A stretch of DNA of 64,000 nt from Candidatus Latescibacterota bacterium (GCA_965248265.1 CBDFJF010000001.1:1824001-1888000), one strand, 5' to 3'; counted from the first letter of the stretch, positions 1 to 32,584 are shown. A program made the numbers and translations. The notes: generated from the sequence alone by a model not told the origin.

Positions 1-781
1 GATCCCGGGCAACCCGTTCGGTATGCTGCTGCAGATTGCGGCGCAATGGCTCGCGCACTTCTTCGAACGCGACCGTATCTGATGCCACAACCTTGACGAT
101 TTCGAATCCTCTATTCGTTGGTATGATATCGGAGATGTCACCCACTTCGATATTCCCGATCCCTGCCGCCAACGCCGGTGGCAGATCCCCAAGACCGAAG
201 TAGCGGGCAAGGTCACCCCCGGCTGCGGCATCGGGCGCACGGGATCGCGACCGCGCTACCTCGGCGAAGTCCGCTCCTTCCGCCAACATCTGGGCCGCCT
301 CGACGGCGCTGACTTCGTCAGACAGCTCAATGTGGGCGAGCCGGACCCGGCGGTTCCAACCGTTCAGGTAGGCCTGCTCTTCCTGGGCCGCAGTGACCCG
401 GACCGAGTCGCCCATCACCGATTCAAGGAGGTGCCTGTTCAGCCACTCTACCGCATGCCGGTGAAGTCGGCGTTGAACTTCAGCAAGCTCGAAATACCCC
501 AGCTTCTGGGCCTCGATCACCATGATCTGTCGGTCAACCAATCCCCCCAGCACATCGCGCATCTGGGCCTCCCCGGTATACACCGATTGCAGGTGCTCGG
601 GCAGTCTGGCCTCGTAGGCTCTCAGATCGGCTTCACTGACAGCGAAGTCGCCGACTTCGACCAGGACCGTGGGAGCATCTGAACCCTGCGTGCACGCCAG
701 CATCCCCAAGAACAGGACCACGGCCCGGGGTATGGCCAGCCTTGCCGTCGGCGACAGGGGTCGAGTTGACAGCGGCGGCAC
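1..781 (-). CDS. Parvulin-type peptidyl-prolyl cis-trans isomerase lipoprotein (PrsA/SurA-like), 3' end runs off the window
   Basis: Not in the ORF track because it has no stop in the window. Manual translation from GTG at 781 gives a signal with lipobox (VVLFLGMLAC) and then RVRLAHIEL...GADFAEVARSRS...GGDLARYF...VGDISDIIPTNRGFEIVKV, which is a rotamase motif set. Confidence 0.85.
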   Translation of the reverse strand, partial: MPPLSTRPLSPTARLAIPRAVVLFLGMLACTQGSDAPTVLVEVGDFAVSEADLRAYEARLPEHLQSVYTGEAQMRDVLGGLVDRQIMVIEAQKLGYFELAEVQRRLHRHAVEWLNRHLLESVMGDSVRVTAAQEEQAYLNGWNRRVRLAHIELSDEVSAVEAAQMLAEGADFAEVARSRSRAPDAAAGGDLARYFGLGDLPPALAAGIGNIEVGDISDIIPTNRGFEIVKVVASDTVAFEEVREPLRRNLQQHTERVARD

Positions 782-797
782 CTGTGAATTCTGAATC

Positions 798-3593
798 TCA
801 GTCGTCAAAGCCTGCGTACACGGTGAAGAAGATGAAGGTTTCTGTCTGTGGCGCCGCCAGGACATCGATGTCGACCCGTGCCACGCGCAGGCCGAAATGG
901 GTGTAGACGACGTATCCCAGGTAGGGACTCCGATTGGAGAGTTGGGCGGCGCTGACGAGTTCCCGGCGGGGCGACCCCTCGAGGGTAGCCTTGGCGCTTT
1001 TGCGAAACTGCCTCGTCCACAGGTACTCGAGGCCGAACTGGGCGCTGGTGCGACTGAGCAACGAACAGTGCGCGATGAGAAATGCGGACTCCCTGAGTTC
1101 TGATGTGGGCGGGTTCAGCGGATCCTGAATCGAGGACGGTACCAGACGCTGAAACTCACTCTTCCACCGAGGTTCAACCCGTATGCTCCCAAGCGGGAAC
1201 GAGTAGGCGATCTTGTTGATCACACCGAAAAAACTCGCGGTGCGCCGAATCGGGAGAACGCTGGGGATTCCGGGGCTATCGTCCACCTGACGGAAAAACT
1301 CGTACTTGACCTTGGACTGCAGGTTCATCCCAGACACCTGTGTGAGGTCGTGGCGCAGGTAAAAGGTGTTGGCCCATGCATCGCGCGCCGGTAAGGGGTC
1401 GGCCCGGTCCCTTACCTCTCCAGCTATGCCGTCGGCGATACGCCAGATCAGGATATCGTCCTCGATGTCGTCCCGTGCCCGGCGCAGGTTGTCGAACACC
1501 CGCACGCGGCCCATCCGGGGAAAATCTCGTTCGTAGGTGAACAACAGGTAGTCGGTTTCATTGCGGCGTTCATCCGCCAGCTGTCTCTCATCCAGCCTCC
1601 CCACGGTCAGCCGGGCGAAGGGTCCCAGATGAGCGCCACCGTAGATGTTGTACCCCCGGCGATCGCGCTTGTAGGGATAGTCGGGCTCATCGTCGTTCTC
1701 GAAGCGATCGATGTAGCCGTTGTTGTTCATGTCGACGCCGAACAAAAACTGAGGTCGGTCTACGTGGTATCTCAGGAACGGCTCCTCCCAGTCGGGATTG
1801 AGATTGGGCCTGACGATGTCTACGTGATTCTGATTGAAGTCGGCGACGAAGTCGTTGTTCTCGTCCCAACCCGGGAAGACGAAGTCATCTCCCGCCCCCT
1901 GCCCGCGTCGTTGCCAGTCTGGATGGCGATCCTGATCGTCGTTGTCTTCCACCAGTTCGTAGACCGATTGGGTCGGTTGATCGTATCGCACCGGGCCGGT
2001 ATCGCCCGCCTCTGAAGCGACGAAGGAACTGGTGCTGTAGTCGGGATCGATGCGATAGATCTCGGCGAAGGTGAAATACGGGTACAGTTGGCGCGACGCA
2101 TTGATCAACCACGCGTTAGCCGCCTCGACGTGGTGGTGATGTCTTGTCGGATCGGGCTGCGCGAATTGCGGGTAGCGCATGTGCCGCCGGTTTCTGGCGA
2201 ATTCGGCCTGTACGTCGAATCCCCCCAGGTCGCGCAGTTCGGCTGTCATGCCGACGATCTCGTTGGCCGTGGGCAAGCCATACTCCACGGACACGAAACG
2301 CTGATTGGATCCGTCCTTGACGTTGCCGGGGGCCCTCACCGTTCGCTCCGCCAACCCCTGCGAGAGAAAAACCGGCTGGTTGAGTTCGTTTACCTGAACA
2401 TTCGAGGTCAGATCGACGCGGTAGTCGTTGGCCAGTAGCAAACGAAACTCAACTTGCGTGATCTGTGCAGGGACGGGGCCTGCGGCGGCGCGGTAGAGCT
2501 CTCCGGTGAAGTCGTAGCGCAGTGAGATCGTCCGAAATCCGTCGGCGACTCGGATGCCCCCGCGATCGACACCGCCCTCAACGGTCGGATGATAGTTGAG
2601 GATTGCTTCTCCAGCCGGGCCAGTACGCTGATTGCTGACGCGGCGCCCGTCTGTGGTGGAGATGATGATTTCTTCCAGGAAGTAGGCCGCCCCTCCCTCC
2701 TGGTCCTCGGGCGAGTCGTCGCTCAACTGGATCACGATCTCGCGGACCTCGCCGTTTTGCTGTTCCGTCAGCGAGCCCTTGAGAGGATTGCCCTCAAAGG
2801 CCCCACCCCGCGTCGTGGCGTTGAAGGCATTGACATAAGTAACTCCGACGCGAGCGAAGTCGCCTACTTGAGCCTGGAATCGGCCTCCGAGAAGATTCGT
2901 GACGTTGGAGCGGTCGTTGGCCTCGGTGTCGTCGCTGCGAAAACCGCTCGGCCTGGAGGCGATGATGGTGGTTTCGTACTTGTCGCTGGCCAGATCGAAT
3001 TGAATCCCGTCGAATGCCGGTTTTGAGAAGGTCAGCGGCGTCAAGGTCGTCCGGATCTCATCTCCCACGGTGACACTGGCGTGGTATTGCCCCCTCGCAT
3101 CCGAAGCGACGATCAGGTTCGAGAAGAAGTCGCTGTACTGGGAAGTCTTGAGGAGGCGACTGCCTGCCGCCTCGGGTTCGGACACGGTCCAGTCGAACAC
3201 CAGCCAGCCTCTGGTAACGTAGCCTCCGTAGATATCGTAAAAGTGGTCCCCCTCAAGACTGGTGCGAACGTAGCGTTGGTACGGAGTGCGGGCGTAATTG
3301 CTGGTCTCCCACTGTCTCCAGCGATACGCATTGAACAACTCCTGCGGCACGTACCACTTCCGCACCGCGGGATCGAGGGCGTCATACAGGACTCCGGGGC
3401 CCTGTGGTTCGAAGCCCACTTCACCCCCAACCCGTGGCGTGCCCAGGCGATTACCGGGATCCTCTGCTGCAACACGACAAACCAACCACAGACACACGAT
3501 CACCGCGAGTGCGAGCCAACCACGTCGCCTACGCGCGGCGGGTGTTCTCCCGTCCCTGTGATGAGATGAAGCGGTATCAGAGCACATGGACAC
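798..3593 (-). CDS. Large exported protein, probably an outer-membrane beta-barrel with Asp/Asn-rich (Ca-binding-like) loops
   Basis: 931-aa ORF with a basic plus hydrophobic N-terminal signal. Alternating amphipathic strands occur in the C-terminal third, which ends FFTVYAGFDD. Loops include EDNDDQDRHPD, WDENNDFVADFNQN and DMNNNGYID. Confidence 0.6.
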   Translation of the reverse strand: MSMCSDTASSHHRDGRTPAARRRRGWLALAVIVCLWLVCRVAAEDPGNRLGTPRVGGEVGFEPQGPGVLYDALDPAVRKWYVPQELFNAYRWRQWETSNYARTPYQRYVRTSLEGDHFYDIYGGYVTRGWLVFDWTVSEPEAAGSRLLKTSQYSDFFSNLIVASDARGQYHASVTVGDEIRTTLTPLTFSKPAFDGIQFDLASDKYETTIIASRPSGFRSDDTEANDRSNVTNLLGGRFQAQVGDFARVGVTYVNAFNATTRGGAFEGNPLKGSLTEQQNGEVREIVIQLSDDSPEDQEGGAAYFLEEIIISTTDGRRVSNQRTGPAGEAILNYHPTVEGGVDRGGIRVADGFRTISLRYDFTGELYRAAAGPVPAQITQVEFRLLLANDYRVDLTSNVQVNELNQPVFLSQGLAERTVRAPGNVKDGSNQRFVSVEYGLPTANEIVGMTAELRDLGGFDVQAEFARNRRHMRYPQFAQPDPTRHHHHVEAANAWLINASRQLYPYFTFAEIYRIDPDYSTSSFVASEAGDTGPVRYDQPTQSVYELVEDNDDQDRHPDWQRRGQGAGDDFVFPGWDENNDFVADFNQNHVDIVRPNLNPDWEEPFLRYHVDRPQFLFGVDMNNNGYIDRFENDDEPDYPYKRDRRGYNIYGGAHLGPFARLTVGRLDERQLADERRNETDYLLFTYERDFPRMGRVRVFDNLRRARDDIEDDILIWRIADGIAGEVRDRADPLPARDAWANTFYLRHDLTQVSGMNLQSKVKYEFFRQVDDSPGIPSVLPIRRTASFFGVINKIAYSFPLGSIRVEPRWKSEFQRLVPSSIQDPLNPPTSELRESAFLIAHCSLLSRTSAQFGLEYLWTRQFRKSAKATLEGSPRRELVSAAQLSNRSPYLGYVVYTHFGLRVARVDIDVLAAPQTETFIFFTVYAGFDD

Positions 3594-3601
3594 CTGGCAG
3601 A

Positions 3602-6600
3602 CTAGTAGACGACCGTTACGGTGCGGACGATCTGCACCTCATCGGCGTCCGTTCCCAGGCGCAGATTGAACAGGTACAGTCCCGGTGCGACCAACCGCCC
3701 ATCCTGCCGACGGCCATCCCATACATACCGCAATGCTCCGGTGGTGATCGGTCCGCCTCCCGCCTCGGTGCGAGCCCGAGCCACGAACCGTCCACTGAGA
3801 TCGTGAAAGGTGATGTGAGCTGGCCGCGGTTCCAACAGGTGGACGACCGTGAATTCGATAGCCAGCTCGTCGTTGACGTTGTCTCCGTTGGGCGAAAACA
3901 CGGAGGGCAGCTGTAACTCCTCTATGACGCCCAACTGCTCGAAGACTGTCGCCCGCGCCGTCTGGCTGTCCACCAGCTCAGTGGCATCGAGGCTCTGTAG
4001 AGGTACTCGCTGAAGAGAACGCTTGCTCTGCCGGCTGTTGCGCACAAAGGCCTGTACCGTAGAGGTCGGATCCAGGAACTTCGCCTTGAAACGAATCTCC
4101 ACCAGCGCGTGAAGGTCGGCGGCGGCCTTCGAGCCCAATACCTGGGGCAGGCTGATGACGGTTGTGTCTCCGCGTACCTGGAGGCTGAGATTTCTTCCCC
4201 GCGCATCCGTGAAATGGGGCGATTGGCTCTGGTTGGACGCAGGATCGAAGGAGGTGTCAAAGCGACTGCTTCCCAGCGGTTGGGGCGGTGCAGGCTCGTC
4301 TTGTCGCGTTGGCGCGACGGTCCCGGATCGGACCTGCACCAGCTCCGGTCGCCGCGGAACCACCAGCCAGACCTCGTCGAAACCAGCTGTTGCAGAATTG
4401 CCAGAGACCTGCCCGGCACGCAGAAAATAGGCGAACACCTGCTCTGACAGGGCGGGAATGTCGCGCGGGGATCGATAATCCTCGGTTTCGGCGCCCAGGT
4501 CACCAGGTGGCCTCGAAGTTCCTGATGGAGTCACCAATGCCAGCTCTCCGGCCAGTTCATCGGTGAGCGGGGTTGCCACCTCGACCTGGATGGAGCGCAG
4601 CCGGGCGCTGACCTGCGGATCCTCCGACTCGATCTGTGCCCGAATCTGGAGAAACCGCTGTGGCCCCCTGGAGTCGATGGTTGCCCGATTGAGATCAGAG
4701 ACCGAGCGGTATGGCTGGCTCCAGGCGCTCCACTGTGACAGCACCTGGCTGACGCTGAACTCCGCTTCGACGCGCGGATCGGACTTGCGCCGGCCGTCCT
4801 CGTCGATGAGTTGATCACCATCTTCGTCAACCCCATCGATACCGTCCTCGTCAATCAGTCCGTCGCCGTCGTCGTCACGGTCGCTGGCGTGGCGCATGAG
4901 GGTGATGGAACCACTCGCCCCCTGTGGCCCGCCACGATCATCAGTAAGGCCATCCTCGTCAATCAGTCGATCTCCGTCATCGTCGATTCCGTTTGGACCA
5001 TCCTCATCGACCAGGCCGTCGCCGTCGTCGTCACGCCCACTGCGGTGCTGCTGCAGGTTGATGGTGTGGGTCTCCGGCATCTGCAGCCAGACAGCGTAAT
5101 CGGCCTGCAGGGACCGTATGTCCTCGTACGCCGCTGAATCAATCACCGTCCTGCGCTCGCTGGAGGTGCCGGCAGCGATGATCTGATGGTAAGTGATTAC
5201 GGAATCGACTCGTGCACTGGTCCGCGTCTGCAGCCATAGCGCCACCTCAGGATGGCGGGAAATCGGTTCAGCCAGTTCGGCTGTGGCCGCGGCGTCAGCA
5301 TCCAGCGATCGCACGACAGCCTCGGCTTCCCAGACGATGTCTCCGAGTATGCGACTGGCATGCGACCCGTCGGGGTCCGCGGGGGCCATTGGGATTTCGG
5401 GAGAATAGAGCCCGATTTTGGCAGGAAAACCACTCCCGTACATCTGTATTTCATTGAAATTCGCGAAGGCATTGGAAAACCCGGACGTGCCGCCCGTCGG
5501 GTCCACATTCCGCAGTTGAAAAAAGCGCAACCGCCGCGGCGCGAAGCGTTCCCGCATCAGGCGAGCGGTGGCCGTGGTATTGTCCTTGTTGAGATCGCTG
5601 GCCAGATCTGCCCATCGTAATCCGCGTTCAAACTCGGGGTAATCCTCCAGATCCTGCAGCACCAGTGGCCGTACCGCGGTCCCGTCGGAGCCCAGCAGAT
5701 GCAATCCTTGAAGCGTGCCGACTACGTCGTTTTCTGTCGTTGGCAGGAACCCCAGAAAAATGGTGTCTATCCAGAACACGGCACCCAGATCCAGCCACAT
5801 CGTGCAACAGGCCGTGGTTGGACCACCAACCTGTTCGGAAAGCTGTGAATCCCAGGATGTGGCCAGCCAGCGGGTCAAGTAGACGCCGTCGGTCGCGGCA
5901 GCTGGCGAACCCCTCCCTCCTTCCTCGAACGCACCACCGGCACGCATGTGTGGTCTGTAGGCGACGTTGTCCCCAGGCCCCCACACTTCGATCTCAGAGA
6001 ATCGCGGTCGTTCGCGTTCGAAGTAGACGATATCTCCCTGCTCTGCCGGCGGGAGCTCGTCGTAGATCGCTGCCGCTGTCTTGATAGTACCACCGTCGGC
6101 GTCGACGGCTCGAAGCTCCGTGATCGTGCCGCCGGCAGTCACCCGTTGAAAAAGACGGCGGCCCCGGCGTGCAGACGGGAGCGCCTGGTATGCCTGCAGC
6201 CCGTCAGCCCCCTCGCCGAGCCGTGCTTTTTGATCGAAGTCACTGGAAACAATCGTGATCCGGATGAAGTGGATGAAACTGCCCTCGAGATCGGCTCGGC
6301 CATCCAGGTCCCCGTCGGCGCGATCCAGGGGATGAACTGCGAATACGTAGCGCCCGCCCCCGCCCTGACCGCGGCCACTGCCGATGGCATCGTAGCGATA
6401 GCCGCGCCCTGATGCTGTGCCGATCTGCTTGCCCATCGACGCTTCGACGGCAAACAGTTTGGGGGCATCCGATGGTGGAGTGCGTATGACGATGCTGTCC
6501 ACCCAAACCGCGCGGCCGAGGTCGATGTTGATTTGCCACCTGCTCAGATCGCCTCGATCTAAATCAGTTGAAGGCGGTTCCCAGCAGGAATCGACGTCAC

Positions 6601-6943
6601 CGTCGACGAGAAGGCCGGCCAGGTGGGCATTGGCCAGCGCCGTGATGTTGCCCCGGACACTATTGCCGCCCTGACGGACACCGTCAGCGTATTCGAACTG
6701 GCCCATGTCCGTCGTATAATTGCGCTTTCGCGCCTGGAAACGAGGGGCGATGCCGCCTGAATCGAGGTGAAATAGGCGAGTGGAATCGATAGCGGCCGCT
6801 CGCTGCTCGACGATGTCGTTTTGATAAATCCAATTGCGCCAGTGCTCGACGCCACGCACCACGATCCCGTCAGCCGTGTGCTGGTATGCCTCACCGTAAG
6901 CGCCGGCGCTCAAAGCAGTCACGACGAGCAGGAGGATGGCCAT
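3602..6943 (-). CDS. Large secreted protein with discoidin/F5-8-like domains, Asp-rich repeats and a C-terminal CHU_C/FlgD-Ig (T9SS-CTD-like) domain
   Basis: 1113 aa with a signal peptide. Motifs INIDLGRAVWVDSI and MWLDLGAVFWID are present. The C-terminus reads PSVFSPNGDNVND...DLSGRFVA...WDGRRQDGRLVAPGLYLF. The ATG overlaps the upstream stop (TGATG at 6941-6945). Confidence 0.75.
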   Translation of the reverse strand: MAILLLVVTALSAGAYGEAYQHTADGIVVRGVEHWRNWIYQNDIVEQRAAAIDSTRLFHLDSGGIAPRFQARKRNYTTDMGQFEYADGVRQGGNSVRGNITALANAHLAGLLVDGDVDSCWEPPSTDLDRGDLSRWQINIDLGRAVWVDSIVIRTPPSDAPKLFAVEASMGKQIGTASGRGYRYDAIGSGRGQGGGGRYVFAVHPLDRADGDLDGRADLEGSFIHFIRITIVSSDFDQKARLGEGADGLQAYQALPSARRGRRLFQRVTAGGTITELRAVDADGGTIKTAAAIYDELPPAEQGDIVYFERERPRFSEIEVWGPGDNVAYRPHMRAGGAFEEGGRGSPAAATDGVYLTRWLATSWDSQLSEQVGGPTTACCTMWLDLGAVFWIDTIFLGFLPTTENDVVGTLQGLHLLGSDGTAVRPLVLQDLEDYPEFERGLRWADLASDLNKDNTTATARLMRERFAPRRLRFFQLRNVDPTGGTSGFSNAFANFNEIQMYGSGFPAKIGLYSPEIPMAPADPDGSHASRILGDIVWEAEAVVRSLDADAAATAELAEPISRHPEVALWLQTRTSARVDSVITYHQIIAAGTSSERRTVIDSAAYEDIRSLQADYAVWLQMPETHTINLQQHRSGRDDDGDGLVDEDGPNGIDDDGDRLIDEDGLTDDRGGPQGASGSITLMRHASDRDDDGDGLIDEDGIDGVDEDGDQLIDEDGRRKSDPRVEAEFSVSQVLSQWSAWSQPYRSVSDLNRATIDSRGPQRFLQIRAQIESEDPQVSARLRSIQVEVATPLTDELAGELALVTPSGTSRPPGDLGAETEDYRSPRDIPALSEQVFAYFLRAGQVSGNSATAGFDEVWLVVPRRPELVQVRSGTVAPTRQDEPAPPQPLGSSRFDTSFDPASNQSQSPHFTDARGRNLSLQVRGDTTVISLPQVLGSKAAADLHALVEIRFKAKFLDPTSTVQAFVRNSRQSKRSLQRVPLQSLDATELVDSQTARATVFEQLGVIEELQLPSVFSPNGDNVNDELAIEFTVVHLLEPRPAHITFHDLSGRFVARARTEAGGGPITTGALRYVWDGRRQDGRLVAPGLYLFNLRLGTDADEVQIVRTVTVVY
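4793..5036 (-). repeat. Four intragenic DD(D/E)GDxL(I/V)DED-type peptide repeats arranged as two pairs
   Basis: The translation contains DDDGDGLVDED, DDDGDRLIDED, DDDGDGLIDED and DEDGDQLIDED. Boundaries are approximate. Confidence 0.85.
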
Positions 6944-9519
6944 CAGTAAGCCAACGCCACGTGCCGTGCGATCCTGAAGTCAGCCGCGTCCGTCCGCACT
7001 CGCAGCTGCAGCAGATAGATTCCAGGAGGCACGAGGTCTCCCTGGTCATCCTTGCCATCCCATCCATCGGCGACTTCACCCGGAGGGACCCGCCGCTGCC
7101 ACCCGCGCAGGCGGCGGCCGGACAGATCGAAGATTCCGGCCTCGACGTCCACTTCCCGCAAAACGCGAAGCAGGTCGTAGCCGATGTGAACGCGGTCATT
7201 GATGCCGTCACCATTGGGTGTGAAAGGATTCGGTTGCAGGGTCACCCGCGCCACGAGGTCCCCCACAGGGGCATGGGCGGCCGTGATCGCACTCAGACTG
7301 TTGCGGTCGCGCCGGTCGGCGCCGAAATCGATCGCATTACCGGCACGCACCCGCTGCGGCAGGATCCTTGTCTCGCTACCAACGACAACGATATCTCCAT
7401 AGGACCTCTCCAGACTCGGGTCCAGCGTATCGAGAAAGGCCTGACTCTCGAAGAACGTGGTGGTGCCCAGCACGCGGGTGCGAAAATGGATGAGTAGCCG
7501 TGTATCCTCGGTTGATGCCCGGGTGATCGCCGGCAACTCGGGTATGGCTACGACAAAGAAACCAGGCTCTACAGTCGCCGTGTCGAAGCTCAGCGGTCGC
7601 GTGGACACACCTTCTTCATCCAGCTCCAGAACCAGCTCTACTCCGCGCACCTGGCTGAACGCAGGGGTACCAACACGAATTCTGTTCACTCCTGCATCCT
7701 CAACCTCAGCATGCAGCTGCAGGGCGTAGGTGAACAGCGTATCCACCGCAGGATTGATGCCGGCAGCTGGCACTACCTCTGCCTGGAGCCGGGAGACAAC
7801 CGGGGGCACCACAAGCTCGAAGTGGAGGTTTTCCACGATTGTGGCAGCATCGGGATCGCTGCTGGTGAAATCGACTCGCAGCTGAAAGAATGGGCGCCCT
7901 CCCCGTGCGCTGATTACCTGGCCGTTAGTGAGAGGCTGGAACGGACTCCACCAAACAGGGTCTCGTACCCGCGGCAAAGCCGATCCATTGCGCTCGCGTC
8001 GGGCAGCCGGCAATTGCATGTACTCGGCGAAGGTAGTCTGGGCTCCGGCGCGCACTTCGGCTGGCAAGACCTCCCAGACGGCGCGCGATCCCGTCCGCAA
8101 CAGTGGATCATCGAGCCAAACGGACGTGCCTTCGGTAGGACTGCCGTCGCGGTGATCGATCACCTGGGTATCGGCCCGCCACTCGACAGCATCCCCGTTG
8201 CCGTTCACCCGGAACAGCAGCAATGGTTCCGGTGTCGTTCCGGTGCGCATACTTATGGAAGCACTCGAGTGAGCCGGGTCCCCGATCGTGCGCTCGTCCC
8301 AAAACACGCGCCCTAGTGTGGCCCCCGGCAAGGCGTCGAGTTGGGCGCGGCGCGCGCGATTGCCCGCCTGATATTCGAGCATGGCTGACGCGGCCTCGCT
8401 CTGAAAGGGCAGCGCCCGCGTGACATAGGTGGCCTGAGGAACAAAGCCGCGTCCGAAAACCTCGAGCTCAGCGACGTCGAAATCGAGCGCAGTCAGTGAC
8501 TTGAACTGCAGAAAGCGCAGGTATTGCGGGGGGTCGAGCGCGATGGCTACGGTGTCGGCATCGTTGCCACGCTCGATCCTTAGCATGTCGTACAACGGAA
8601 CCCCTTTTTGCGCCAGGGCTTCGTCACCCAACAGTTCGTAGGCGGCATTGTTGACTGGCGACAGCGTTCCCGTGAGTGTGGGCTTGAGGTTGATTCCATC
8701 ATTGATCTCAATGCTGTACCCACTGATCGCAAGAGGGAGGTCTCGCGGACGCGGGTAAAAGCGCACCAAGCCCACCGGAAAACGCGACACCAGGTCCATG
8801 CGAATGACAACACTGCGTTTTTCTACGACTCGATTGGGGGCGTCTTCACGAACAAACGCCGTGCTCGCGTCGACGTCGATGAGATGCTCCAGGTTGCTGC
8901 GCAGTTGCTGATCGTTGAGCTGCGTTTCGTACTGTGTCGGCGACCACAGCAGAGACTCAAAGCGGAACTGCGGATTGCGTGGCCACAAAACGGCGTGCGC
9001 CAGATTGACCATCGTCCGCACACTGTCGACGCCGGCGCCAGTGAACAACCGGATGCCTGCCAGTGACCGCGGCAGATCCGCTCCCGCCTCCAGCAACACC
9101 TGTCCTGCGTGTGCCAGGGTGTCGCCATCCACGATGAAATCCCGTTGCGCGATCACATGGTCTCGAGCAATGTGTCCGGTAAAGCGGCTCAGGCGATCGA
9201 GCTCTTGGGGGCTGAGCTCATCGATCGCCGCAGCTGTGGACAGGATGGGGACTTCTATGACTACCGTCGTGTCCAGCGGTGCGATGCCGCTGGCGGAAAG
9301 CGCGTAATCAATCTCAGGGAAGTAATTGCCTGGTGAGAAAGGAGGTTGCTGAGCCTCCTCCCAACCGATGTCGCCCGGAATCGAGAACTGGATCACCGAG
9401 GATTGCGCCATCACTGCCGTGACGCTGAGGGCGGCGTACAGGTGCAAGGACAGCGTTCGCCGGACGATCCGGACGATGTCGTGAAGGAGGATCGATGTTC
9501 GATGGTTGCACATCGACAT
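6943..9519 (-). CDS. Large secreted protein, paralog of the downstream gene, with a discoidin-like domain and a C-terminal CHU_C/FlgD-Ig domain
   Basis: 858 aa with a signal ending AVMA-Q. Motifs RMDLVSRFPVGLVRFYPR and AELEVFGRGFVP are present. The C-terminus reads PNPFTPNGDGIND...IFDLSGRRLR...WDGKDDQGDLVPPGIYLL. Confidence 0.75.
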   Translation of the reverse strand: MSMCNHRTSILLHDIVRIVRRTLSLHLYAALSVTAVMAQSSVIQFSIPGDIGWEEAQQPPFSPGNYFPEIDYALSASGIAPLDTTVVIEVPILSTAAAIDELSPQELDRLSRFTGHIARDHVIAQRDFIVDGDTLAHAGQVLLEAGADLPRSLAGIRLFTGAGVDSVRTMVNLAHAVLWPRNPQFRFESLLWSPTQYETQLNDQQLRSNLEHLIDVDASTAFVREDAPNRVVEKRSVVIRMDLVSRFPVGLVRFYPRPRDLPLAISGYSIEINDGINLKPTLTGTLSPVNNAAYELLGDEALAQKGVPLYDMLRIERGNDADTVAIALDPPQYLRFLQFKSLTALDFDVAELEVFGRGFVPQATYVTRALPFQSEAASAMLEYQAGNRARRAQLDALPGATLGRVFWDERTIGDPAHSSASISMRTGTTPEPLLLFRVNGNGDAVEWRADTQVIDHRDGSPTEGTSVWLDDPLLRTGSRAVWEVLPAEVRAGAQTTFAEYMQLPAARRERNGSALPRVRDPVWWSPFQPLTNGQVISARGGRPFFQLRVDFTSSDPDAATIVENLHFELVVPPVVSRLQAEVVPAAGINPAVDTLFTYALQLHAEVEDAGVNRIRVGTPAFSQVRGVELVLELDEEGVSTRPLSFDTATVEPGFFVVAIPELPAITRASTEDTRLLIHFRTRVLGTTTFFESQAFLDTLDPSLERSYGDIVVVGSETRILPQRVRAGNAIDFGADRRDRNSLSAITAAHAPVGDLVARVTLQPNPFTPNGDGINDRVHIGYDLLRVLREVDVEAGIFDLSGRRLRGWQRRVPPGEVADGWDGKDDQGDLVPPGIYLLQLRVRTDAADFRIARHVALAY

Positions 9520-9542
9520 CGACGGCCGTCGTCGAACCCTGC

Positions 9543-10487
9543 CTAGTCGGCGAAGCTCGCTTTGATACGCCCCCAGGAGTTGCTCTCAACTGCCGTGATA
9601 GGAGATGCGGCCGCACCGCAGTCACCGGTGTTGCAGGAAATCAACTCGCCGTCGACAAAATTGTCGGCCTCCCTCCACGTCAGTGGTTGTCCTGATAACG
9701 TGTGGTACCCGTGGAACAAGAACAGGTCATCACAGGCGAAACAACCAGCGTCGAAGTCTGGGATCGACACCTGGAACCCGAGGATCTTGCCGGCGACCAA
9801 TTCCGTGCGCCTGCTGCGCTCCGGTCCACGCCAGTCCAACTCGTCCCAGGGGGTGATGAACATTTCGATCACGGACGTGTTGGGTGATTCCTGATTGTCG
9901 GTAAAACCGCCGGCATTGGAAAAAGGTGGGGCGATTGCCCAGGTCGCGGCGCCTCCGTATCCCAGGGTGTTGTTGTCGGGAGATACGGCGATGGCGAAGT
10001 ATTGCTGGGCTTGAAAACCAGACAGCAACTTCGCTTCTTCAGCTCCGAAGCCGTCCTCTTCGAGGTATCGGTTGTACTTGCCCCCGGTATGATCGCCATC
10101 TACCATGAATTCGATACTGTCATACTGCCACACGTTGCCCAGATCCCCACCTTCGTAGGTATTGACGTAGACGTCATCCACGCGCTCTATGGCCACGTAT
10201 AGATGGTTGCCGGCGCTGTGCCAGGCCATGAACACGCGATAGGCCAGGTCGGCCGTGTCGATACCGGCCCCGTCGTTGACATTCAGAGGTGCAAACTGGT
10301 CCTGATTCAGCGAAAACGTAGGCAAGACCTCTACCCAATCATCGAGGCTGCCATCGTGAATATCGGGTAACTCATCCGTCGATAGTTCGAATATCGGGAA
10401 TGGTTGTCCTCCACCCACGTGCGCTGACGCAGCTTGACTAATGATAACGAGCACAACTATGCAACTCGGGACTGTGAGGCGCGTCAT
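9543..10487 (-). CDS. Secreted CBM9/DOMON-like sugar-binding-fold protein with a C-terminal TAVExxSWGRIK tail
   Basis: ATG at 10487 follows a GAGGAGGAG RBS, and the signal ends AASA-H. CBM9_1-like motifs are HDGSLDDW, MAW..LYVA..DD, DSIEFMVDGDH and E..I..P..GFQVSIPDFD. The protein ends ITAVESNSWGRIKASFAD. Confidence 0.65.
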   Translation of the reverse strand: MTRLTVPSCIVVLVIISQAASAHVGGGQPFPIFELSTDELPDIHDGSLDDWVEVLPTFSLNQDQFAPLNVNDGAGIDTADLAYRVFMAWHSAGNHLYVAIERVDDVYVNTYEGGDLGNVWQYDSIEFMVDGDHTGGKYNRYLEEDGFGAEEAKLLSGFQAQQYFAIAVSPDNNTLGYGGAATWAIAPPFSNAGGFTDNQESPNTSVIEMFITPWDELDWRGPERSRRTELVAGKILGFQVSIPDFDAGCFACDDLFLFHGYHTLSGQPLTWREADNFVDGELISCNTGDCGAAASPITAVESNSWGRIKASFAD

Positions 10488-10644
10488 TTCGCTCCTCCTC
10501 TTGTCAATTGTGATGGCGATCACGTCTCCGACGGAGAGGCGTGATCAAAGCAAGACCATGTGCGTCGGGGCGGACTCAGGCCTAACCTATTACTGGCCAG
10601 CCACTTAGTAACTAGTAACAGCCATCGTTCAAGATAGTCACGGA

Positions 10645-12623
10645 GTGAGACAGATACAACACATCAATTGCCGGGCCCATTCCCATTCCCAGGGCTTATT
10701 TCAGTGGGGAGTCCTGGTAGCCGTGCTCCTGTCCGCGAGCGGTGACATCGGATGCGGACGGGAACCGGAACACCGTCCGAACCCAGTGCGCGAGAGCGTG
10801 GTTGATCATCTGGACGCAGGCAGCGGCCTCAGCAGTCCCAGAACCCGCCAGGGTATAGCGCTCCCCTCAGGCGACATCTGGGTGGCGACGGAGAAAGCCC
10901 TTGATCGACTGCGAGACGGCAGGTTTGTAGACAGCTACGATCATTCCCATCCTGCACCGATACCGGTGGGCCGCATAAACGCGATAGCCACGGACGGGAC
11001 GGGTGCAACCTGGATCGGCACCTCGGACGGGCTGGTCCGCTTCGAGGACGGCGCGTTTACGGAGTCGTTTACCGGTCTGCCAGACTCGCGGGTCCTGAGC
11101 TTGCTGTCGACGGATGATGCCATGCTGGTCGGAACCTGGCATGGTCTGGCGCGAATCGCCAATGGCCACCCCAGCGCATCGACCCTCGGTGGCGGATTGC
11201 CGGACCGTCCGGTGACAACCATGCTGGCAGGGGATAGCCTGTGGGTCGGGTTTGCTGACAGCGGTCTCTGGGTTGGCAGCCTGGCAGGTCCATTCACACC
11301 GGTAGTAGAGTCCTGGCAGGACCAGGCGCTGACGGTATCCTCGTTGACCCTGGACCCAGCCGGAGATGTCTGGATCGGAACTTCGGGCGCTGGTCTACTG
11401 CGCTGGCGTTCGTCAGGGACGGTGGAGTCGATTCTGCCCTCAGCGAATATCCTGTCCGCCACCATCGACTCCACTGGGGAAATCTGGGTTGGCTCGAACT
11501 CGGGGGTGTATCGATGGCGCGGATCCAGCCTGTCACAGTGGTCAACACCGCAAGACAGCATCGCCGTGACAGCGTTCGCTCGTCTTGACGATCGAATGCT
11601 TGCTGGTACTTGGGGTGAAGGTCTGCTGAATTGCGATGATATCGGGAACTGCAGCGCCGCCGGCCTCGATGACGGCGAAGTCGTCGATATCGCCGTAATC
11701 GATGGCACGGTCTGGGTGACGACGACGGAGGGGCTCATCGTCGTCGATGATAGGACTGAAACGGGGCCTCGAAACCAGGTACTCAAGGCGTCGCGCTGGG
11801 GTCCATACATCTCGAGCGCGGCGACGTCTGGATCACCGCCGAAAGCGGAGGCTTGTACCAACTCGATCGCCAGGGATCGGTCATTCGGCATTACCATTCC
11901 GGCAACCGTCTCCCGAGAGCCAGAATCCTCAGTCTTGCCTATGACGGTAACATGCACAGCGAAAAGCTGTGGGTCGGCACCGCGCTGGGGTTATTCCATT
12001 TCGACGGGATGCAGTTCACACCCCACGAGCTGCAAGTCCCAGTCTATTGTTTGCACCTAGGCCCGAACGGCGATCTGTGGGTGGGATCTGATTCGGGCCT
12101 GTTCCGGCGGTCTGGACATCATTTCGAGGTCGTGGCAATTCCTGAAACGACAGGTCCGCCGGTTGTCCGAGCGCTCCTGGACGATGGCGACGCCTTGTGG
12201 GTGGGAACCGACGAGGGCCTATACGTCCGCGATGCTCACGGACGTTGGCAGCGAATCGACCGTGAATTGCCCTCCCAGCGCATTCGAGACCTTGCTGTCG
12301 ATGATGATCGACAGGTGTGGATTGCCACGACCGGAGGAATGGCGATGTATTCCGCTGGCAGAGTAGTCACCGTCGGGCAGCCACGGCTGGAGGATTCACC
12401 ATTCACTTGCGTGCTCGTCGATGCCGGTGGCCAGATCTGGATGGGCAGCCTGGCCGATGGTGCCTGGCGTTTTGACGGCCTGGATTACCATCACTACTCT
12501 GCCGGCAACGGCCTGAACAGCAACGCTGTGTGGGACCTGTTCGAGGACCAGCAAGGCGCTGTTTGGCTGGCCACCGACCGCGGCTTGACGAGGATTGCCA
12601 GAGGTGAAGGAGACAGCCTTTGA
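10645..12623 (+). pseudogene. Multi-bladed beta-propeller (Reg_prop-like) exported protein split by one frameshift; true pseudogene or sequence error
   Basis: ORFs 10645..12060 and 11853..12623 both carry D..G..W(I/V)GT..GL blades. The second frame is open from 11760 (GVALGSIHLERGDVWITAESGGLYQLD), while the first frame loses the blade pattern after about 11760. Confidence 0.7.
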
Positions 12624-13789
12624 TCGCCGTTCTCAGCATGATCTTCGTCATCCAGTTGACGACGGCCGTCTGCGCCGGTGAACGAGGAGACCCACTCAAC
12701 CGAGCGGTCCAGCTCGACCGACCGGACCTGCTCGAAGTGCGCGCCGAGCGTCGACCGGGAAGCGGATGGATAGACGTCTCGTACATCACTTCGCAACTGC
12801 TGTCGCCAGCCTGGGTGATCGTCTCAGCTTCTGATGACGGTGGTGATTCCTTCGATCTTCCCGTTCGCAGCGTGGTCGGTGATGTCGGGCGCCTCGATGC
12901 TGGCAACCCCGGGGCGCACAGGTTGCAGTGGCATGCACTCGCAGACGTCCCTGATCTGTTCATCCATGACTGGCGTGTGGAACTGACGATCTCGGAAACG
13001 CCCCCGGTACCCACCTGGCAGGACATGATCCACGTGCCAGAAGGCACGGTAATGATGGGATCAGGTGGGGGGGATGCGGATGAACGCCCGCAGCGTGATG
13101 TCCGGCTCCCAGCATTCTACATCGACCGGTTCGAAACTACCAGCCGAGCCTTCATGTGGTACGTCCAATCCACAGGGAGACGTACGGCGGCCGAGCACGT
13201 CGATAGTTCGCTGATATACGAGGACGGCGGTTATGAGACCGTCCGGGGAGCCTCATGGTGGCGTCCTGAAGGTACTGCGGTCGTTTCACTGGACCATCCC
13301 GTGGTGCAGGTGGACTGGTACGATGCCCAGGCCTACTGCGAATGGGCGGGCAAGCGCTTGCCCACGGAAGCTGAGTGGGAACAGGCCGCCCGCGGCGACG
13401 ATGGCAGGACCTTTGCCTGGGGATGGGAAGGACCAGAGGGCGGCAACCGCGCCAATTTCGGCGATAGTCGCTGCTGCCATGAGAGTGACCGCGATGGCTT
13501 CTTGCGAACAGCTCCGGTGGGAAATTTTCCCCGCGGACGATCGCCCTTCGGAGCCGAGGACATGGCAGGCAACGTCTGGGAATGGGTCGCCGACTGGTAT
13601 GGTGAAGACTACTACTCCACCGGGGCACCTGCGGTGGCGCCAACCGGACCGCGGCGTGGATCAGCACGGGTCTTGCGCGGCGGTTCCTGGATCAGCTACC
13701 CGTTCATGCTACGCGCATCCTACCGCGGTAACCACGAACCAGAAATGCGCCATAATTACGGGGGCTTCCGCTGCGCTCGAACACCCTGA
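12620..13789 (+). CDS. SUMF1/FGE-sulfatase-fold (CLec-like) secreted protein, lacking the FGE catalytic cysteines
   Basis: Motifs FYIDRFETT, HPVVQVDWYDAQAYC, RLPTEAEWE, DMAGNVWEW, RGGSW and GFRCA are present. It has a signal peptide and an N-terminal Ig-like segment. The start overlaps the upstream stop. Confidence 0.9.
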   Translation: MIAVLSMIFVIQLTTAVCAGERGDPLNRAVQLDRPDLLEVRAERRPGSGWIDVSYITSQLLSPAWVIVSASDDGGDSFDLPVRSVVGDVGRLDAGNPGAHRLQWHALADVPDLFIHDWRVELTISETPPVPTWQDMIHVPEGTVMMGSGGGDADERPQRDVRLPAFYIDRFETTSRAFMWYVQSTGRRTAAEHVDSSLIYEDGGYETVRGASWWRPEGTAVVSLDHPVVQVDWYDAQAYCEWAGKRLPTEAEWEQAARGDDGRTFAWGWEGPEGGNRANFGDSRCCHESDRDGFLRTAPVGNFPRGRSPFGAEDMAGNVWEWVADWYGEDYYSTGAPAVAPTGPRRGSARVLRGGSWISYPFMLRASYRGNHEPEMRHNYGGFRCARTP

Positions 13790-22530: not shown

Positions 22531-25485
22531 ATGGCGGACGAGAAACCCGATACAGCCGAAAACGAGCCGGAGGAACTGGCCACCGCAGCGGACGAAGACG
22601 TTCTGGGGGGACTGGAATCCCTGTTGGATGAAGAGGGCGCTGGACTCGCGCTTCCCGATGAGGATCTGACTGAGGATGATCTCAACGACCTCTTCGAGGA
22701 TGATGACGACGACGCTGAACTGGAGGACGTGGCACCGGCCAGTCGTACGGGACGGGAGGCTAGGCAGGAGCGCAAACAGCGTGACCGAGAGGACTACCGC
22801 AATCTCGAAGCCCACTTGCAGGCGACCCCGTTGGGACTGGTGGTCTCCGACGACAAGATGGCAGTGCGGGTCAGTCGCATTACGGGTGACAATTCTGCCG
22901 AAGAGATCCTCGCTCTGCTCAAGAGAGAGAAGATCGTCAACGGCATCGACCACGAAGCCATTCGCTCCGCCCTTTCCAAAGCGGCCACCGGGCAAAATCA
23001 GTTCGAAGTCACCGTTGCCCGCGGCCAGCGGCCCAAAGTCCTCGAAGAGACCCACGTAGTCTACCACATGCCGGACGACTTGATCACCGATCCCGAAGCC
23101 CAAAAGACCGACTTCGAGCGTCTCAAGCGCCTCATGGAGGGCGAATATCTCGAAGCCTGCAAGAACTGGCAGGGGCCGGTCAAGATGGTGCGCAAAGGCG
23201 ATCTCGTCGCTGAACTGAAACACGCGGAAATCGAGTTGGGATGTGACGTCTTCGGAGAAGAGGTCAACCTCGAGGGTCGAGGTGGCATCTCCCTCGAAGT
23301 CGGCGATAACGTGACCCTCAGCGAAGACGGAACGAAGGCCACTGCCGATCTATACGGCTACGCCGGCCTGCTGGCCGGTCTGGTCACCGTGGTCCCGCCG
23401 ATCTGGATGTCCTCCGATCACATGGAAGCCCGATTCATCTTCTACACCGCTCGCAAGGCGCCGCCCGTGCCGACGGAGGAGGACCTCAACGAGCTGCTGG
23501 AGATGAAATGGATCGAGTATGGCGTGATGGAGAAGCAGATCGAGCTGATCTGCCAGCGGCTGGCGGAAAAGCAGGCGCTGCCCACCACCGTGCCACTCGC
23601 CCAGGGCTCGCCCGAGATCCACGGCGGTGACGCCCAAATCAAGTACTCCTTCGACCCTTTCGAGCTGATCAAGTGGAATCAACTGCAGAGCCTGCTCAGT
23701 GCCAAAGCCCCGGAAGCGATCCAGCACAACCTGACCGAACTCTACGATGGCGAAGAGGAATGCACCATACGCTTCAAGGCCGTGCGCCCGGGTGAGGTTG
23801 TGGCTGAGAAGCTGCCAGCTACGCAGGGCGTCGTCGGCCGGGATATCCAGGGAGAGGAAGTGGCCCCTAACGAGGGCAACGACGTGCCACTCGAGGTCGG
23901 CGAGGGACTGGCCATCGACGATGACGGATTGCGGGCCAAGGCCGAGCACTATGGTTACGTGGCGCTTCGCTGGGACATCGAGACCAACGTCCTCTCACCA
24001 CTGTGGATCTCCCCCGACCGCACAGCCGTGTATTTCCTGAACCTGCCCCAGGCACAGAACCCGAGATTCCCCTCAGTCGAGGACATGCAGAACCTGCTGG
24101 ACAAAGAGGGGGTCGTTCACGGGTTCACCCCTGAGCGATGGGCGGAGATCCTCGCGGAACTGGAAGAGGGCAAACACACCAAGGACTATGTCATCCTCGT
24201 CGCCCAGGGAACGCTGGCGCAGCCTGGCTCGGACGCTGAGTTCGACTGGATGGTAGCGATCGACAACAACAAGCCCGGCCGCATCATGGACGACGGCTCC
24301 ATCGACTTCCGAGACCGAAATCTGAACACCGTCGTCAAAGAAGGTGATATGCTGGGCAAGCTGGTGCCCCCCAAAGTCGGCGTTGCCGGCAAGGATGTGT
24401 TCGGCAACGAGTTGCAGCCTCCGTCACCGCTCAACATCGAGGTCGTCACCGACTCTCGCATATACGCAGAACCCGTCGAGGGCGGGGCCATGGCCTTCTA
24501 TTGCGAGACGGGCGGCGGCATTTCCACGGACGCGGAAATCAAGAAAGTGAAGGGCCGCACCCACAAGCGCATCAACATCGGCGTGTACCCGATCTCCAAC
24601 ATCGAAGGGGATATCGACTACTCCACCGGCAACATCGATTTCAATGGCGATGTCGTGGTCGGCGGCTCCGTTCAGTCACAATTCTCCGTCAAGGCTACCG
24701 GCACGGTTACGATCGGCGGCTATATCGAGGCGGGCGCTTATGTCACCGCGGGCCAAGATATCCTAATTCAGCGGGGTGTCGTCGGAGCCAGCACCGAACT
24801 GGTCGCGGGCGGGGACATCATGTCCAAGTTTATCCAGGAAGCCACAGCCCGGGCCGGTGGCAACGTCAAGGTCGGCAGCTATATCTTCAATGCCTCCGTG
24901 CGCGCTCGTGGAGAAGTCATCGTGCCGGGGATGGGCGAAGGCAAGTCTCGGGCGCTGGTCGGGGGATTGATTTGGGGGGCCAAGGGCATTTCGGCCCGCT
25001 CCATCGGATCTCCCTACAATGCGGGCACGCGGCTCGTCGTCGGCATTGATCCCGATCAGGTCAACCGTGCCGATCAGATCCGTGCCAACATGCACGCCTG
25101 TCAGGAGAAACAACGCAAACTGCTCAAGAAACTGGGAGTCGAGAGTCTCGACGTATCCTTGATCAAGCAGAGACTCGCCCGATGTCCGTCACCCAAGCAG
25201 AAGCAGGCCATGTTGATGGCGGTCAAACGCATCGCCAAGGTTGCTGAGTTGGAGCAAAATCAGCAAGCCGAGTTGGAGGAAATTGCCGAGGCTCAGCGCA
25301 AACTTTCGCACCAGACCAACATCAATGTCGTCAGCGAACTCTTCGCCGGGGTCGAACTGCGCATCGGTGAACAGACCGAGACCGTCCGCGAGGACAAGGA
25401 AAAAGTCAGCTTCAAGTTGGTAACCGAGGACGAGGAAGTGAAGATCCAGGAGGAAGTCCTCTCTAAGACAATCAAACTGAGCTGA
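22531..25485 (+). CDS. FapA/DUF342 family protein with three tandem N-terminal modules
   Basis: Motifs DDGSIDFRD, GDIDYSTGNIDFNGDVVVGGSV (beta-solenoid), GGDIMSKFIQ and GSPYNAGTRL, followed by a coiled coil and ELFAGVELRIG. Confidence 0.88.
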   Translation: MADEKPDTAENEPEELATAADEDVLGGLESLLDEEGAGLALPDEDLTEDDLNDLFEDDDDDAELEDVAPASRTGREARQERKQRDREDYRNLEAHLQATPLGLVVSDDKMAVRVSRITGDNSAEEILALLKREKIVNGIDHEAIRSALSKAATGQNQFEVTVARGQRPKVLEETHVVYHMPDDLITDPEAQKTDFERLKRLMEGEYLEACKNWQGPVKMVRKGDLVAELKHAEIELGCDVFGEEVNLEGRGGISLEVGDNVTLSEDGTKATADLYGYAGLLAGLVTVVPPIWMSSDHMEARFIFYTARKAPPVPTEEDLNELLEMKWIEYGVMEKQIELICQRLAEKQALPTTVPLAQGSPEIHGGDAQIKYSFDPFELIKWNQLQSLLSAKAPEAIQHNLTELYDGEEECTIRFKAVRPGEVVAEKLPATQGVVGRDIQGEEVAPNEGNDVPLEVGEGLAIDDDGLRAKAEHYGYVALRWDIETNVLSPLWISPDRTAVYFLNLPQAQNPRFPSVEDMQNLLDKEGVVHGFTPERWAEILAELEEGKHTKDYVILVAQGTLAQPGSDAEFDWMVAIDNNKPGRIMDDGSIDFRDRNLNTVVKEGDMLGKLVPPKVGVAGKDVFGNELQPPSPLNIEVVTDSRIYAEPVEGGAMAFYCETGGGISTDAEIKKVKGRTHKRINIGVYPISNIEGDIDYSTGNIDFNGDVVVGGSVQSQFSVKATGTVTIGGYIEAGAYVTAGQDILIQRGVVGASTELVAGGDIMSKFIQEATARAGGNVKVGSYIFNASVRARGEVIVPGMGEGKSRALVGGLIWGAKGISARSIGSPYNAGTRLVVGIDPDQVNRADQIRANMHACQEKQRKLLKKLGVESLDVSLIKQRLARCPSPKQKQAMLMAVKRIAKVAELEQNQQAELEEIAEAQRKLSHQTNINVVSELFAGVELRIGEQTETVREDKEKVSFKLVTEDEEVKIQEEVLSKTIKLS

Positions 25486-32258: not shown

Positions 32259-32584
32259 GCGGAACCTCCCTTTGCTGGACTGCCGTGCTTGGCTCACCCT
32301 GCGATCATGGCGTGGTACCTTCTACCATGCTATCACTTCGGGCTCGCAGCATCGACTGCTTGCAACATTCGTTCGGGGGAATATAACCTAGTTGTCCTGT
32401 CCAGAAACACGTTATTTCTCCCTGAAAAGAGACCGTGGATGCGTCCTTGCCTGGCTTTTTGGCGATCGATATATTCGCTCGCACCGCAGCCGGATCAAAC
32501 CACCGGATGGCGCACTATCGTAGAACCGTTCGCCCATTGTTGCTGCCGGCTGCCTGAAACACGGTCCCTCCTTCCTGCATATAG

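Follow-up and report, generated by a model that had tools for sequence, protein, structure and literature searches.

The subject of this work is a gene cassette at the beginning of a 64,000-nucleotide stretch of DNA from Candidatus Latescibacterota bacterium (G000:C1:1824001-1888000). This whole stretch is called the window below, and cassette positions are counted from its start. An open reading frame (ORF) scan placed five ORFs, g1 to g5, within 1-10523, all on the minus strand and separated by gaps of 23, −1, 8 and 16 nt as measured on the sequence. The initial annotation of this DNA had described a cassette of five co-oriented, closely spaced genes, all with export signals. Orientation, spacing and export signals were borne out: a hydrophobic N-terminal segment can be read by eye in each of the five translations, and g5 adds a lipobox (..LGMLAC). 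The five genes are present, but the cassette does not end with them. Beyond g5, off the window and on the same strand, lie genes for a 971-amino-acid (aa) protein with the same kind of C-terminal domain (CTD) as g2 and g3 (g2'), a 322-aa paralogue of g1 (g1') and a 252-aa lipoprotein, so that the local module comprises eight genes (g1, g2, g3, g4, g5, g2', g1' and the lipoprotein gene) over ~16 kb.

The gene g1 (9543..10487 (-)) starts from an ATG at 10487 within an ORF of 326 aa (9543-10523), and encodes an exported CBM9-like protein of ~314 aa (DOMON/CBM9 superfamily). The two large genes g2 (6943..9519 (-)) and g3 (3602..6943 (-)) encode exported proteins of 858 and 1113 aa. Each ends in a type-B-like CTD that occupies its last 109 aa, at 6946..7272 (-) in g2 (ending ..VALAY) and at 3605..3931 (-) in g3 (ending ..VTVVY). 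Directly downstream of g3 is g4 (798..3593 (-)), which encodes a 931-aa predicted outer-membrane β-barrel of an undescribed family. The GTG start of g5, at 781, lies 16 nt beyond the g4 stop; the window holds the N-terminal 260 of its 571 aa (1..781 (-)), the gene extending past the window start.

The G+C content is even across the cassette (0.59–0.62, with 61% for the genome). A consensus scan of 1-11000 found one promoter-like site, compared with a mean of 2.6 in shuffled sequences, and four terminator-like sites, compared with 7.2. This scarcity of sites inside the cassette is compatible with a single operon, without being proof of one. Among the sequencing runs matching 600-10500 there were no RNA runs; seven DNA or unclassified runs from two studies contain all or part of this interval.

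g4 belongs to an undescribed family of giant barrels

The g4 protein had no Pfam or NCBIfam match at E ≤ 0.1, and none of 34 relatives (0/34) matched any Pfam family at E ≤ 0.01. AlphaFold2 (AF2) models were made from 34 sequences (predicted local distance difference test, pLDDT, 66.0; predicted template modelling score, pTM, 0.66) and from 127 sequences (pLDDT 75.4, pTM 0.75). The protein had been suspected from its sequence to be a large barrel, and in the AF2 models it is a predicted outer-membrane barrel, with ~26 long strands in residues 125-928 (DSSP; this is a hand count, in which an error of one or two is possible).

In the second model the barrel is broken by two large insertions. One of these (2301..2813 (-), residues ~261-431) is β-rich, sits between barrel strands 7 and 8, and has pLDDT values mostly of 80-96. 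The other is an acidic, Asp/Asn-rich region of residues ~516-644 with a model confidence of 50-82, of which residues ~548-644 are encoded by 1662..1952 (-). Judged by invariant and near-invariant alignment columns, no block of the family is better conserved than the acidic region, whose D621-x-N-x-N-G-x-I-D-x-x-E632 fits positions 1-12 of the EF-hand loop pattern. Short turns alternate with longer loops in the model when counted back from the C-terminus. In outer-membrane proteins the long loops usually lie outside and the short turns on the periplasmic side; because of this rule and the observed alternation, we infer that the β-rich insertion would be on the extracellular side, and that the acidic region would be extracellular or within the lumen. 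Residues 45-115 are conserved, yet were modelled with low confidence.

Fold searches with g4 returned only large outer-membrane barrels, all of them generic matches. The best Foldseek match was SlpA of Deinococcus radiodurans (8ae1_A, E 4.4e-8), with MtrB, LptD and FimD also found. In VIA-align, the first model gave FhaC and SlpA (7zgx_A) tied at the top with Z 12.6, and SprA at Z 9.9; the second model gave SlpA (7zgx_A) at Z 14.6, with 425 residues aligned at 12% identity, followed by DcaP (Z 13.3), MtrB (Z 12.2) and SprA (Z 10.9). The SlpA score thus stands just above those of unrelated porins at Z 12-13, and TonB-dependent transporters were among the generic matches only (Z 9-12). A profile of the family made from 127 sequences found no solved PDB chain at E ≤ 10.

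Sequence models of known families were compared with g4 as well. The Pfam family SlpA_C (PF21620) matched 3 of 15 distant g4 representatives, in the same profile region and at 16.7–19.8 bits, below its cut-off of 35, and it matched none of 34 close members; no SLH domain was detected in g4 with Pfam or NCBIfam. Plug (PF07715) and the TonB-dependent receptor domain (PF00593) were absent from g4 and its 34 relatives, although the genuine receptor in the window was detected easily. The PorP/SprF models (PF11751, TIGR03519) did not match g4 either, and its 931 aa compare with ~300 aa expected for such proteins.

The family is populous. Among 8000 scored candidates, 929 were related to g4 at E ≤ 0.001. 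In a collection of 1.84 billion representatives, the family formed 1028 clusters at 50% identity at E ≤ 0.001, and 341 at E ≤ 1e-30. Wherever a source had named one of the 120 relatives listed, the name was 'hypothetical protein', and the labelled relatives among the matches listed came from Latescibacteria/Latescibacterota or from metagenome-assembled genomes (MAGs) labelled 'Gemmatimonadetes'. We conclude that g4 represents a large, well-conserved barrel family without a description.

g2 and g3 carry a distinct class of CTD

The tails of g2 and g3 share a C-terminal domain of ~105 aa with the layout PNPFTPNGDGIND / VFSPNGDNVND ... WDG ... PPGxY ... Y-COOH. When the full-length proteins were scanned, CHU_C (PF13585) scored 21.3 bits in g2 and 24.9 bits in g3, both below the cut-off of 27, and the type B model TIGR04131 scored 17.4 bits in g2 (cut-off 35). 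The isolated g3 CTD reached 31.1 bits with CHU_C, above the cut-off, and 21.2 bits with FlgD_ig. We then took 92 isolated cassette CTDs, from the window's genome and others, and counted matches at E ≤ 0.01. CHU_C matched all 92, FlgD_ig 90, the PorU C-terminus model 85, TIGR04131 81 and the type A model TIGR04183 59. On the basis of these counts, the cassette tail is assigned by its model matches to the CTD superfamily of type IX secretion systems (T9SS), nearest to type B. This agrees with the earlier description of the tails as CHU_C/FlgD-type.

The bodies of g2 and g3 look lectin-like, as judged from weak matches. That of g3 has a weak discoidin match (F5_F8_type_C_2, 20.2 bits) and two acidic blocks of DxDxDG-type repeats. 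In the ESM-Atlas cluster nearest to g2 (score 0.95), 70% of the members carry F5_F8_type_C, which is a lead only.

A CTD profile built from cassette tails was then run on all ORFs of at least 150 aa in the window's genome. The scores were bimodal: 32 ORFs, all ending ..[VAIT]Y-COOH, scored 96-130 bits (113 bits for the g2 CTD), while ranks 33-90 scored at most 66 bits, a gap that is partly by construction, since the profile was trained on the same 32 sequences and one generic CTD. The lower-ranking proteins end mostly in K, R or Q, typically as K-[LM]-x-L-[LV]-[KR], which is the generic T9SS tail. Three features owe nothing to the training, namely the Tyr at the end, the PNPFTPNGDGIND motif and where the genes lie. 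As to location, the distance to a g4 gene is at most 6 kb for 26 of the 32 cassette-type CTD genes and at most 200 nt for 11; of the 58 generic CTD genes listed none is within 13 kb of any g4 gene. Among 202 distinct cassette CTDs from other genomes, the last residue is Tyr in 197, Phe in two and Trp in one. By these sequence criteria there are two CTD classes in the genome, the Tyr-ending cassette class (class 2 below) being distinct from the generic class that ends in K or R.

A complex prediction with g4 residues 45-931 and the g3 CTD scored 0.00 in both runs and returned no answer, which speaks neither for nor against binding.

The remaining partners

Two parvulin domains were detected in the full g5 protein, which in the genome measures 599 aa as an ORF and 571 aa from its GTG. 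They fall in separate stretches (161-231 and 397-523), with Rotamase at 52.1 bits (cut-off 21.7) and Rotamase_2 at 76.6 bits (cut-off 27); in the first 288 aa, the part that was scanned, no NCBIfam equivalog cut-off was reached. Together with the lipobox, these domains confirm the proposal that the last gene of the five encodes a lipoprotein of the foldase type. The genome has eight long-form g5 paralogues (558-732 aa), of which six adjoin a g4 gene directly and one more is ~2 kb away from one. Because of these paralogous copies and their position, g5 is not a single housekeeping gene.

The 252-aa lipoprotein encoded beyond g5 is an orthologue (42–48% identity) of a small gene that stands between the barrel and parvulin genes in related genomes. 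In 25 of the 28 closest related loci that have both g4 and g5, the gap between them is 645-909 nt, and ORFs of the lipoprotein family were found there.

The CBM9_1 model (PF06452) scored 13.9 bits in g1, below its cut-off of 23.4, and 26.3 bits, above it, in the off-window paralogue g1'. Most g1-family members (70 listed) end ..TAVExxSWG[RQ]IKAxFxx, and the corresponding tag in g1 itself (9546..9599 (-)) reads ..TAVESNSWGRIKASFAD-COOH. Frames of at least 120 aa contain the motif W[GA]x[IVLM]K[ASTG] 47 times, and 31 of these occurrences are within 12 aa of the stop, compared with 0 of 10 in reversed frames. Only ~13 of the 31 tag-ending proteins belong to the g1 family or are cassette neighbours, the others being encoded elsewhere in the genome. 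The SWGxIK motif is therefore, by sequence, a genome-wide C-terminal tag of ~31 proteins and not private to the cassette; the 'WG-tail' that had been noted on g1 is present, but is not cassette-specific. In its distribution the tag behaves like an undescribed sorting or docking signal. A placement of the tag in front of generic CTDs was considered and rejected, as none of the 16 non-terminal occurrences was so arranged.

The cassette is repeated within the genome

Besides g4, the window's genome has 13 close paralogues (41–47% identity), five distant full-length ones and one fragment, and tblastn and blastp searches with the five proteins showed further cassettes, in which all five genes have relatives, in at least seven places. 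Those on contig C1 are at 133-144, 1323-1336 and 1428-1442 kb, and those on C2 at 1326-1337, 1813-1826, 1911-1921, 2110-2148 and 2166-2189 kb. The number of paralogous cassettes per genome, a count that had been proposed with the initial annotation, is thus, for this genome, at least seven in addition to the one in the window.

One of these places has an arrangement of its own. At G000:C2:1326092-1337177, a single class-2 CTD gene is followed by a tandem of three distant g4-like barrel genes (948, 966 and 1060 aa, 25–30% identity to g4), after which comes a protein with a weak oligogalacturonate-lyase match.

A domain scan of 59 neighbouring ORFs of the cassettes found several recurrent companions. 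These were FG-GAP/ASPIC proteins (six times), tetratricopeptide repeat (TPR) proteins, some with PMT_2, and DUF6785/DUF6784 proteins (five times). The last are ~650 aa long with ~12 hydrophobic segments (for example L029:17390-19345, L030:1543-3528 and L035:2048-3991). Of the 34 genomic places at which the DUF6785 family occurs, 10 are ~10 kb or less from a g4 gene, compared with ~1-2 expected by chance on a rough estimate. We found no paper mentioning this family.

Barrel and CTD genes are linked and co-distributed in other genomes

Conservation of the linkage was measured in 80 loci with 93 g4 genes, taken from GTDB species genomes, in which ORFs were scored with profiles from the window's genome. 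A CTD gene is directly upstream of g4 on the same strand in 77 of the 84 cases with enough upstream DNA, directly downstream in 26 of 86, and on either side in 77 of 79. Together with the 26 of 32 CTD genes near g4 in the window's own genome, this bears out the synteny of barrel homologues with CTD genes that the initial annotation would lead one to expect. The other partners are also regular: among the 55 loci with full flanks, a g1-family gene is within 9.5 kb of g4 in 44 and a g5-family gene in 49, so that the parvulin recurs as a cassette member. In the orthologue group of the window's cassette the gene order is kept as g1, g2, g3, g4, lipoprotein, g5.

The phyletic survey covered 168 genomes of the phylum, including the window's own, which is excluded from the family counts. 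These genomes are kin, and the counts are not those of independent events. g4 was found in 107 of the 168, class-2 CTDs (E ≤ 1e-20) in 102 and SprA in 163. In the window's own family all three were present in 75/75 genomes, and in three sister families of the same class g4 and class-2 CTDs were found in 0/56 and SprA in 56/56. The distributions of g4 and of class-2 CTDs diverge only in two families (f8 and f10), where the matches are weak. Because barrel and CTD share one pattern while SprA is nearly constant across the phylum, the pair is, on these profile matches, an accessory on top of a phylum-wide T9SS. In one well-assembled, 96% complete genome (G031), the barrel and class-2 CTD are present, the best SprA match is 21 bits (below the cut-off) and PorU scores 603 bits; no g4-bearing genome without any T9SS marker was found in the survey.

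Many records that bear the module are labelled Gemmatimonadetes, Gemmatimonadaceae, Gemmatimonas phototrophica or Handelsmanbacteria. Their barrels are 42–65% identical to those in records labelled Latescibacterota, and the labels probably reflect inconsistent MAG taxonomy.

T9SS components in the window's genome

A genome search for T9SS parts, suggested together with the initial annotation, recovered SprA as a 2090-aa frame (297 and 277 bits over two stretches, above the cut-off) and three copies of PorU above the cut-off. A PorV-like gene beside one of the PorU genes scored 155.6 bits, below the cut-off of 250. With TIGR03519 and PF11751, no PorP/SprF gene was found in this genome, which is 92% complete. 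Two sets of candidates for the motor ring were discarded: the ORF with a GldM match (TIGR03517, 20 bits) has an MCP signalling domain and was a false lead, PF12081 giving no match, and all 23 matches to GldK (TIGR03525) were generic FGE-sulfatase domains.

A proposed receiver for T9SS cargo, and other readings of the module

In Bacteroidota, type B CTD proteins bind PorP-like barrels, the pairs named being PorP-PG1035 and SprF-SprB (PMC9143113). Type B cargo needs cognate PorP/SprF shuttles, which are often encoded alongside, and five motifs are required for its secretion (PMC12618676).

Our preferred reading, to which we give an even chance of being right, is that g4 acts as the receiver or anchor for type-B-like T9SS cargo, as a functional analogue of PorP/SprF, in a module that captures glycans at the surface. 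The window holds most of one copy of this multi-copy Latescibacterota envelope module, whose core pairs between one and three large CTD proteins with one dedicated barrel. We consider this reading the most economical because of the linkage of barrel and CTD genes, their co-distribution, the type-B-like tail and the lack of a PorP/SprF gene. On this reading the CTD proteins would cross the inner membrane by Sec and then the outer membrane via the SprA translocon, after which the cognate g4 barrel would receive them and hold them at the surface. The acidic, probably Ca-binding region of g4 and its β-rich insertion would be the likely docking face. In the periplasm, the lipoprotein with two parvulin domains may chaperone either the giant barrel or its cargo. 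The CBM9-like protein, which carries a C-terminal SWGxIK tag of its own, may be an accessory surface subunit, and so may the small lipoprotein. The assembled complex would most likely capture glycans or other polymers at the cell surface.

Several points weigh against a receiver. There is no detectable sequence relation between g4 and PorP/SprF, and because g4 is also three times larger, the analogy is one of gene linkage alone. With about two CTD proteins to each barrel, pairing is not 1:1, and 6 of the 32 cassette-type CTD genes are far from every g4 gene, so that adjacency is not obligatory. A barrel of ~26 strands exceeds what a mere anchor needs, and fits a channel equally well. Linkage and a shared phyletic pattern can also arise when a cassette is duplicated and inherited as one unit, and the genomes are close kin and not independent. 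Of the PorK/L/M/N motor ring, neither of the two components searched for, GldM and GldK, was recognised, and the PorP/SprF negative is soft, since both models matched no control genome either. Finally, the binding of CTD proteins by g4 and their dependence on the T9SS are predictions from genes and models.

The fit of the barrel to a channel leads to an uptake locus resembling a polysaccharide utilization locus (PUL), in which g4 would be a large-pore channel for oligosaccharides or polymers, fed by the CTD and CBM9-like proteins and followed by inner-membrane permeases. The many paralogous cassettes per genome recall PULs, the size of g4 is in the range of channels and translocons, and the partners resemble binding modules (CBM9_1 at 26.3 bits in g1', the discoidin leads in g2 and g3, and FG-GAP/ASPIC proteins beside six cassettes). 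The DUF6785/DUF6784 proteins, with their ~12 hydrophobic segments and 10 of 34 places within ~10 kb of g4, would suit the permease role; however, the other 24 places are far from any cassette, and around the cassette in the window no DUF6785 gene lies closer than 10 kb. Nor does g4 have a match to Plug, to TonB-dependent receptors or to any other Pfam family, and we found no SusD-like gene and no regulator consistently adjacent to the cassettes. Glycoside hydrolases and lyases are nearly absent from the 59 neighbouring ORFs, the oligogalacturonate-lyase match (37.4 bits) being the sole exception. A PUL-like locus is a possible but somewhat unlikely account. It overlaps the receiver reading in part, as anchoring and uptake could coexist. 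The two can be joined in a barrel that is coupled to the T9SS, captures cargo by the C-terminal Tyr strand and the Ca-binding region, and uses its lumen as an uptake pore for lectin-bound ligand. With such a barrel, Latescibacterota would have evolved a counterpart of SusC/D for themselves on a T9SS chassis, in up to ~18 copies per genome; we consider this combination unlikely.

Two further roles for g4 are less likely than receiver or channel. The barrel might translocate the adjacent CTD proteins itself, in the style of ushers or two-partner secretion (TPS) and free of SprA, with the CTD serving for targeting or as a plug domain, the Tyr strand at its C-terminus acting as a docking strand like a β-signal, and the parvulin keeping the passenger export-competent. 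The size of g4 is like that of ushers and LptD, and FimD and PapC (Z 9.0–11.1) were among the fold matches, but the usher and TPS matches were no better than those to porins, and neither POTRA nor a usher plug domain was detected in g4 with Pfam or NCBIfam. The cassette does encode a dedicated periplasmic chaperone, and the genome searches for the motor-ring components GldM and GldK recognised neither. The terminal aromatic of the CTD is near-invariant (197 Tyr, 2 Phe and 1 Trp of 202) and recalls the C-terminal signal of outer-membrane proteins; the domain that carries it, however, belongs to the T9SS CTD superfamily. No g4 genome without a sign of the T9SS was found, and even the genome without a SprA match above the cut-off retains PorU; we regard an autonomous secretion unit as improbable. 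The other role is structural, with g4 as distant kin of the SlpA-type giant barrels of Deinococcus-Thermus, an abundant scaffold or porin to which the neighbouring genes are only loosely related. SlpA was best in all three fold searches (in one of them tied with FhaC), and the sub-threshold SlpA_C matches in 3 of 15 distant representatives fall in the same profile region. Against this, SlpA_C matched 0/34 close members, neither a solved chain at E ≤ 10 nor an SLH domain was found, and the Z of 14.6 is only slightly above those of porins. Eighteen paralogues per genome tied to CTD genes are also unlike a single bulk structural protein, and a role of this kind is highly improbable in our view.

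Relation to known systems

The closest comparison is with the T9SS type B proteins of Bacteroidota and their PorP/SprF partners (SprB-SprF, PG1035-PorP-PorE). The module CTD matches type B models best, the cargo gene adjoins an outer-membrane barrel gene (77 of 84 with the CTD gene upstream), there are several cognate pairs per genome, one barrel can serve several cargoes, and a general T9SS with type-A-like cargo coexists (for the published side, PMC9143113 and PMC12618676). The barrel differs, g4 having ~900 aa, ~26 strands and no family match compared with PorP/SprF models of ~270-290 positions. The second half of the module CTD is FlgD_ig-like and ends in a near-invariant Tyr, unlike Bacteroidota type B. 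Further components of the module are the parvulin lipoprotein, the second, small lipoprotein and the CBM9-like protein, and the host is Latescibacterota. On the preferred reading the module would be of the T9SS cargo and cognate barrel type, built on an undescribed barrel family.

The PULs of Bacteroidota (SusC/SusD) are similar in having many paralogous cassettes that pair a large barrel with exported, binding-module-like proteins. In contrast, g4 is without TonB-dependent receptor or Plug domains, there is no SusD, carbohydrate-active enzymes are almost absent from the 59 neighbours, and the partners are CTD-tagged rather than lipoproteins. SlpA of D. radiodurans (7zgx, 8ae1) is likewise a very large outer-membrane barrel and the best structural match of g4. 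g4 differs from it in having no detected SLH domain or coiled coil, in its multiple copies and their linkage to cargo genes, and in that sequence support for the relation is sub-threshold and confined to 3 of 15 distant members (0/34 close). g5 resembles SurA, PrsA and PpiD in its two PPIC-type rotamase domains and lipoprotein signal, but is cassette-encoded and has several paralogues.

No paper describing the module was found in a search outside which most subscription journals lie, and a term search of PMC11205867 turned up neither Latescibacteria nor Gemmatimonadota. The module is assigned to no characterised system, in line with the initial annotation, which knew of no description of it.

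Almost nothing is known outside Bacteroidota of how T9SS cargo is sorted after it has crossed the outer membrane. In an abundant, uncultured phylum, the present analysis defines a second CTD class and a barrel family that are tightly coupled both in gene position and in phyletic distribution. Should the barrel be a receiver, the shuttle and anchor principle of PorP/SprF would have been reinvented with an unrelated protein, and cargo-partner pairs would become predictable from genomes. If it is also a pore, it would explain how substrates are taken up without SusC/D-type loci in these polymer-degrading bacteria. As candidate parts, the CTD, the barrel and also the SWGxIK tag could be of use in surface display.

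Other features of the region

Just below the cassette, at G000:C1:1811296-1817093, genes for a 1080-aa TPR protein, ExbB, ExbD and a DUF4159 protein stand in a row, and a 315-aa ORF of no known family sits between this row and the cassette. On the other side, divergent from g1, the plus strand at 10645-13789 carries two overlapping ORFs in different frames (10645-12060 and 11853-12623) with Reg_prop β-propeller repeats, followed by an ORF with an FGE-sulfatase domain (12620-13789, 209 bits); this could be three genes or else a single gene with a frameshift. Two other features of the window are outside the module. One is a 984-aa FapA-domain protein with four FapA_N stretches (22531-25485 (+)), and the other is a CarboxypepD_reg-Plug TonB-dependent receptor (29331-32297 (-), 121.6 bits).

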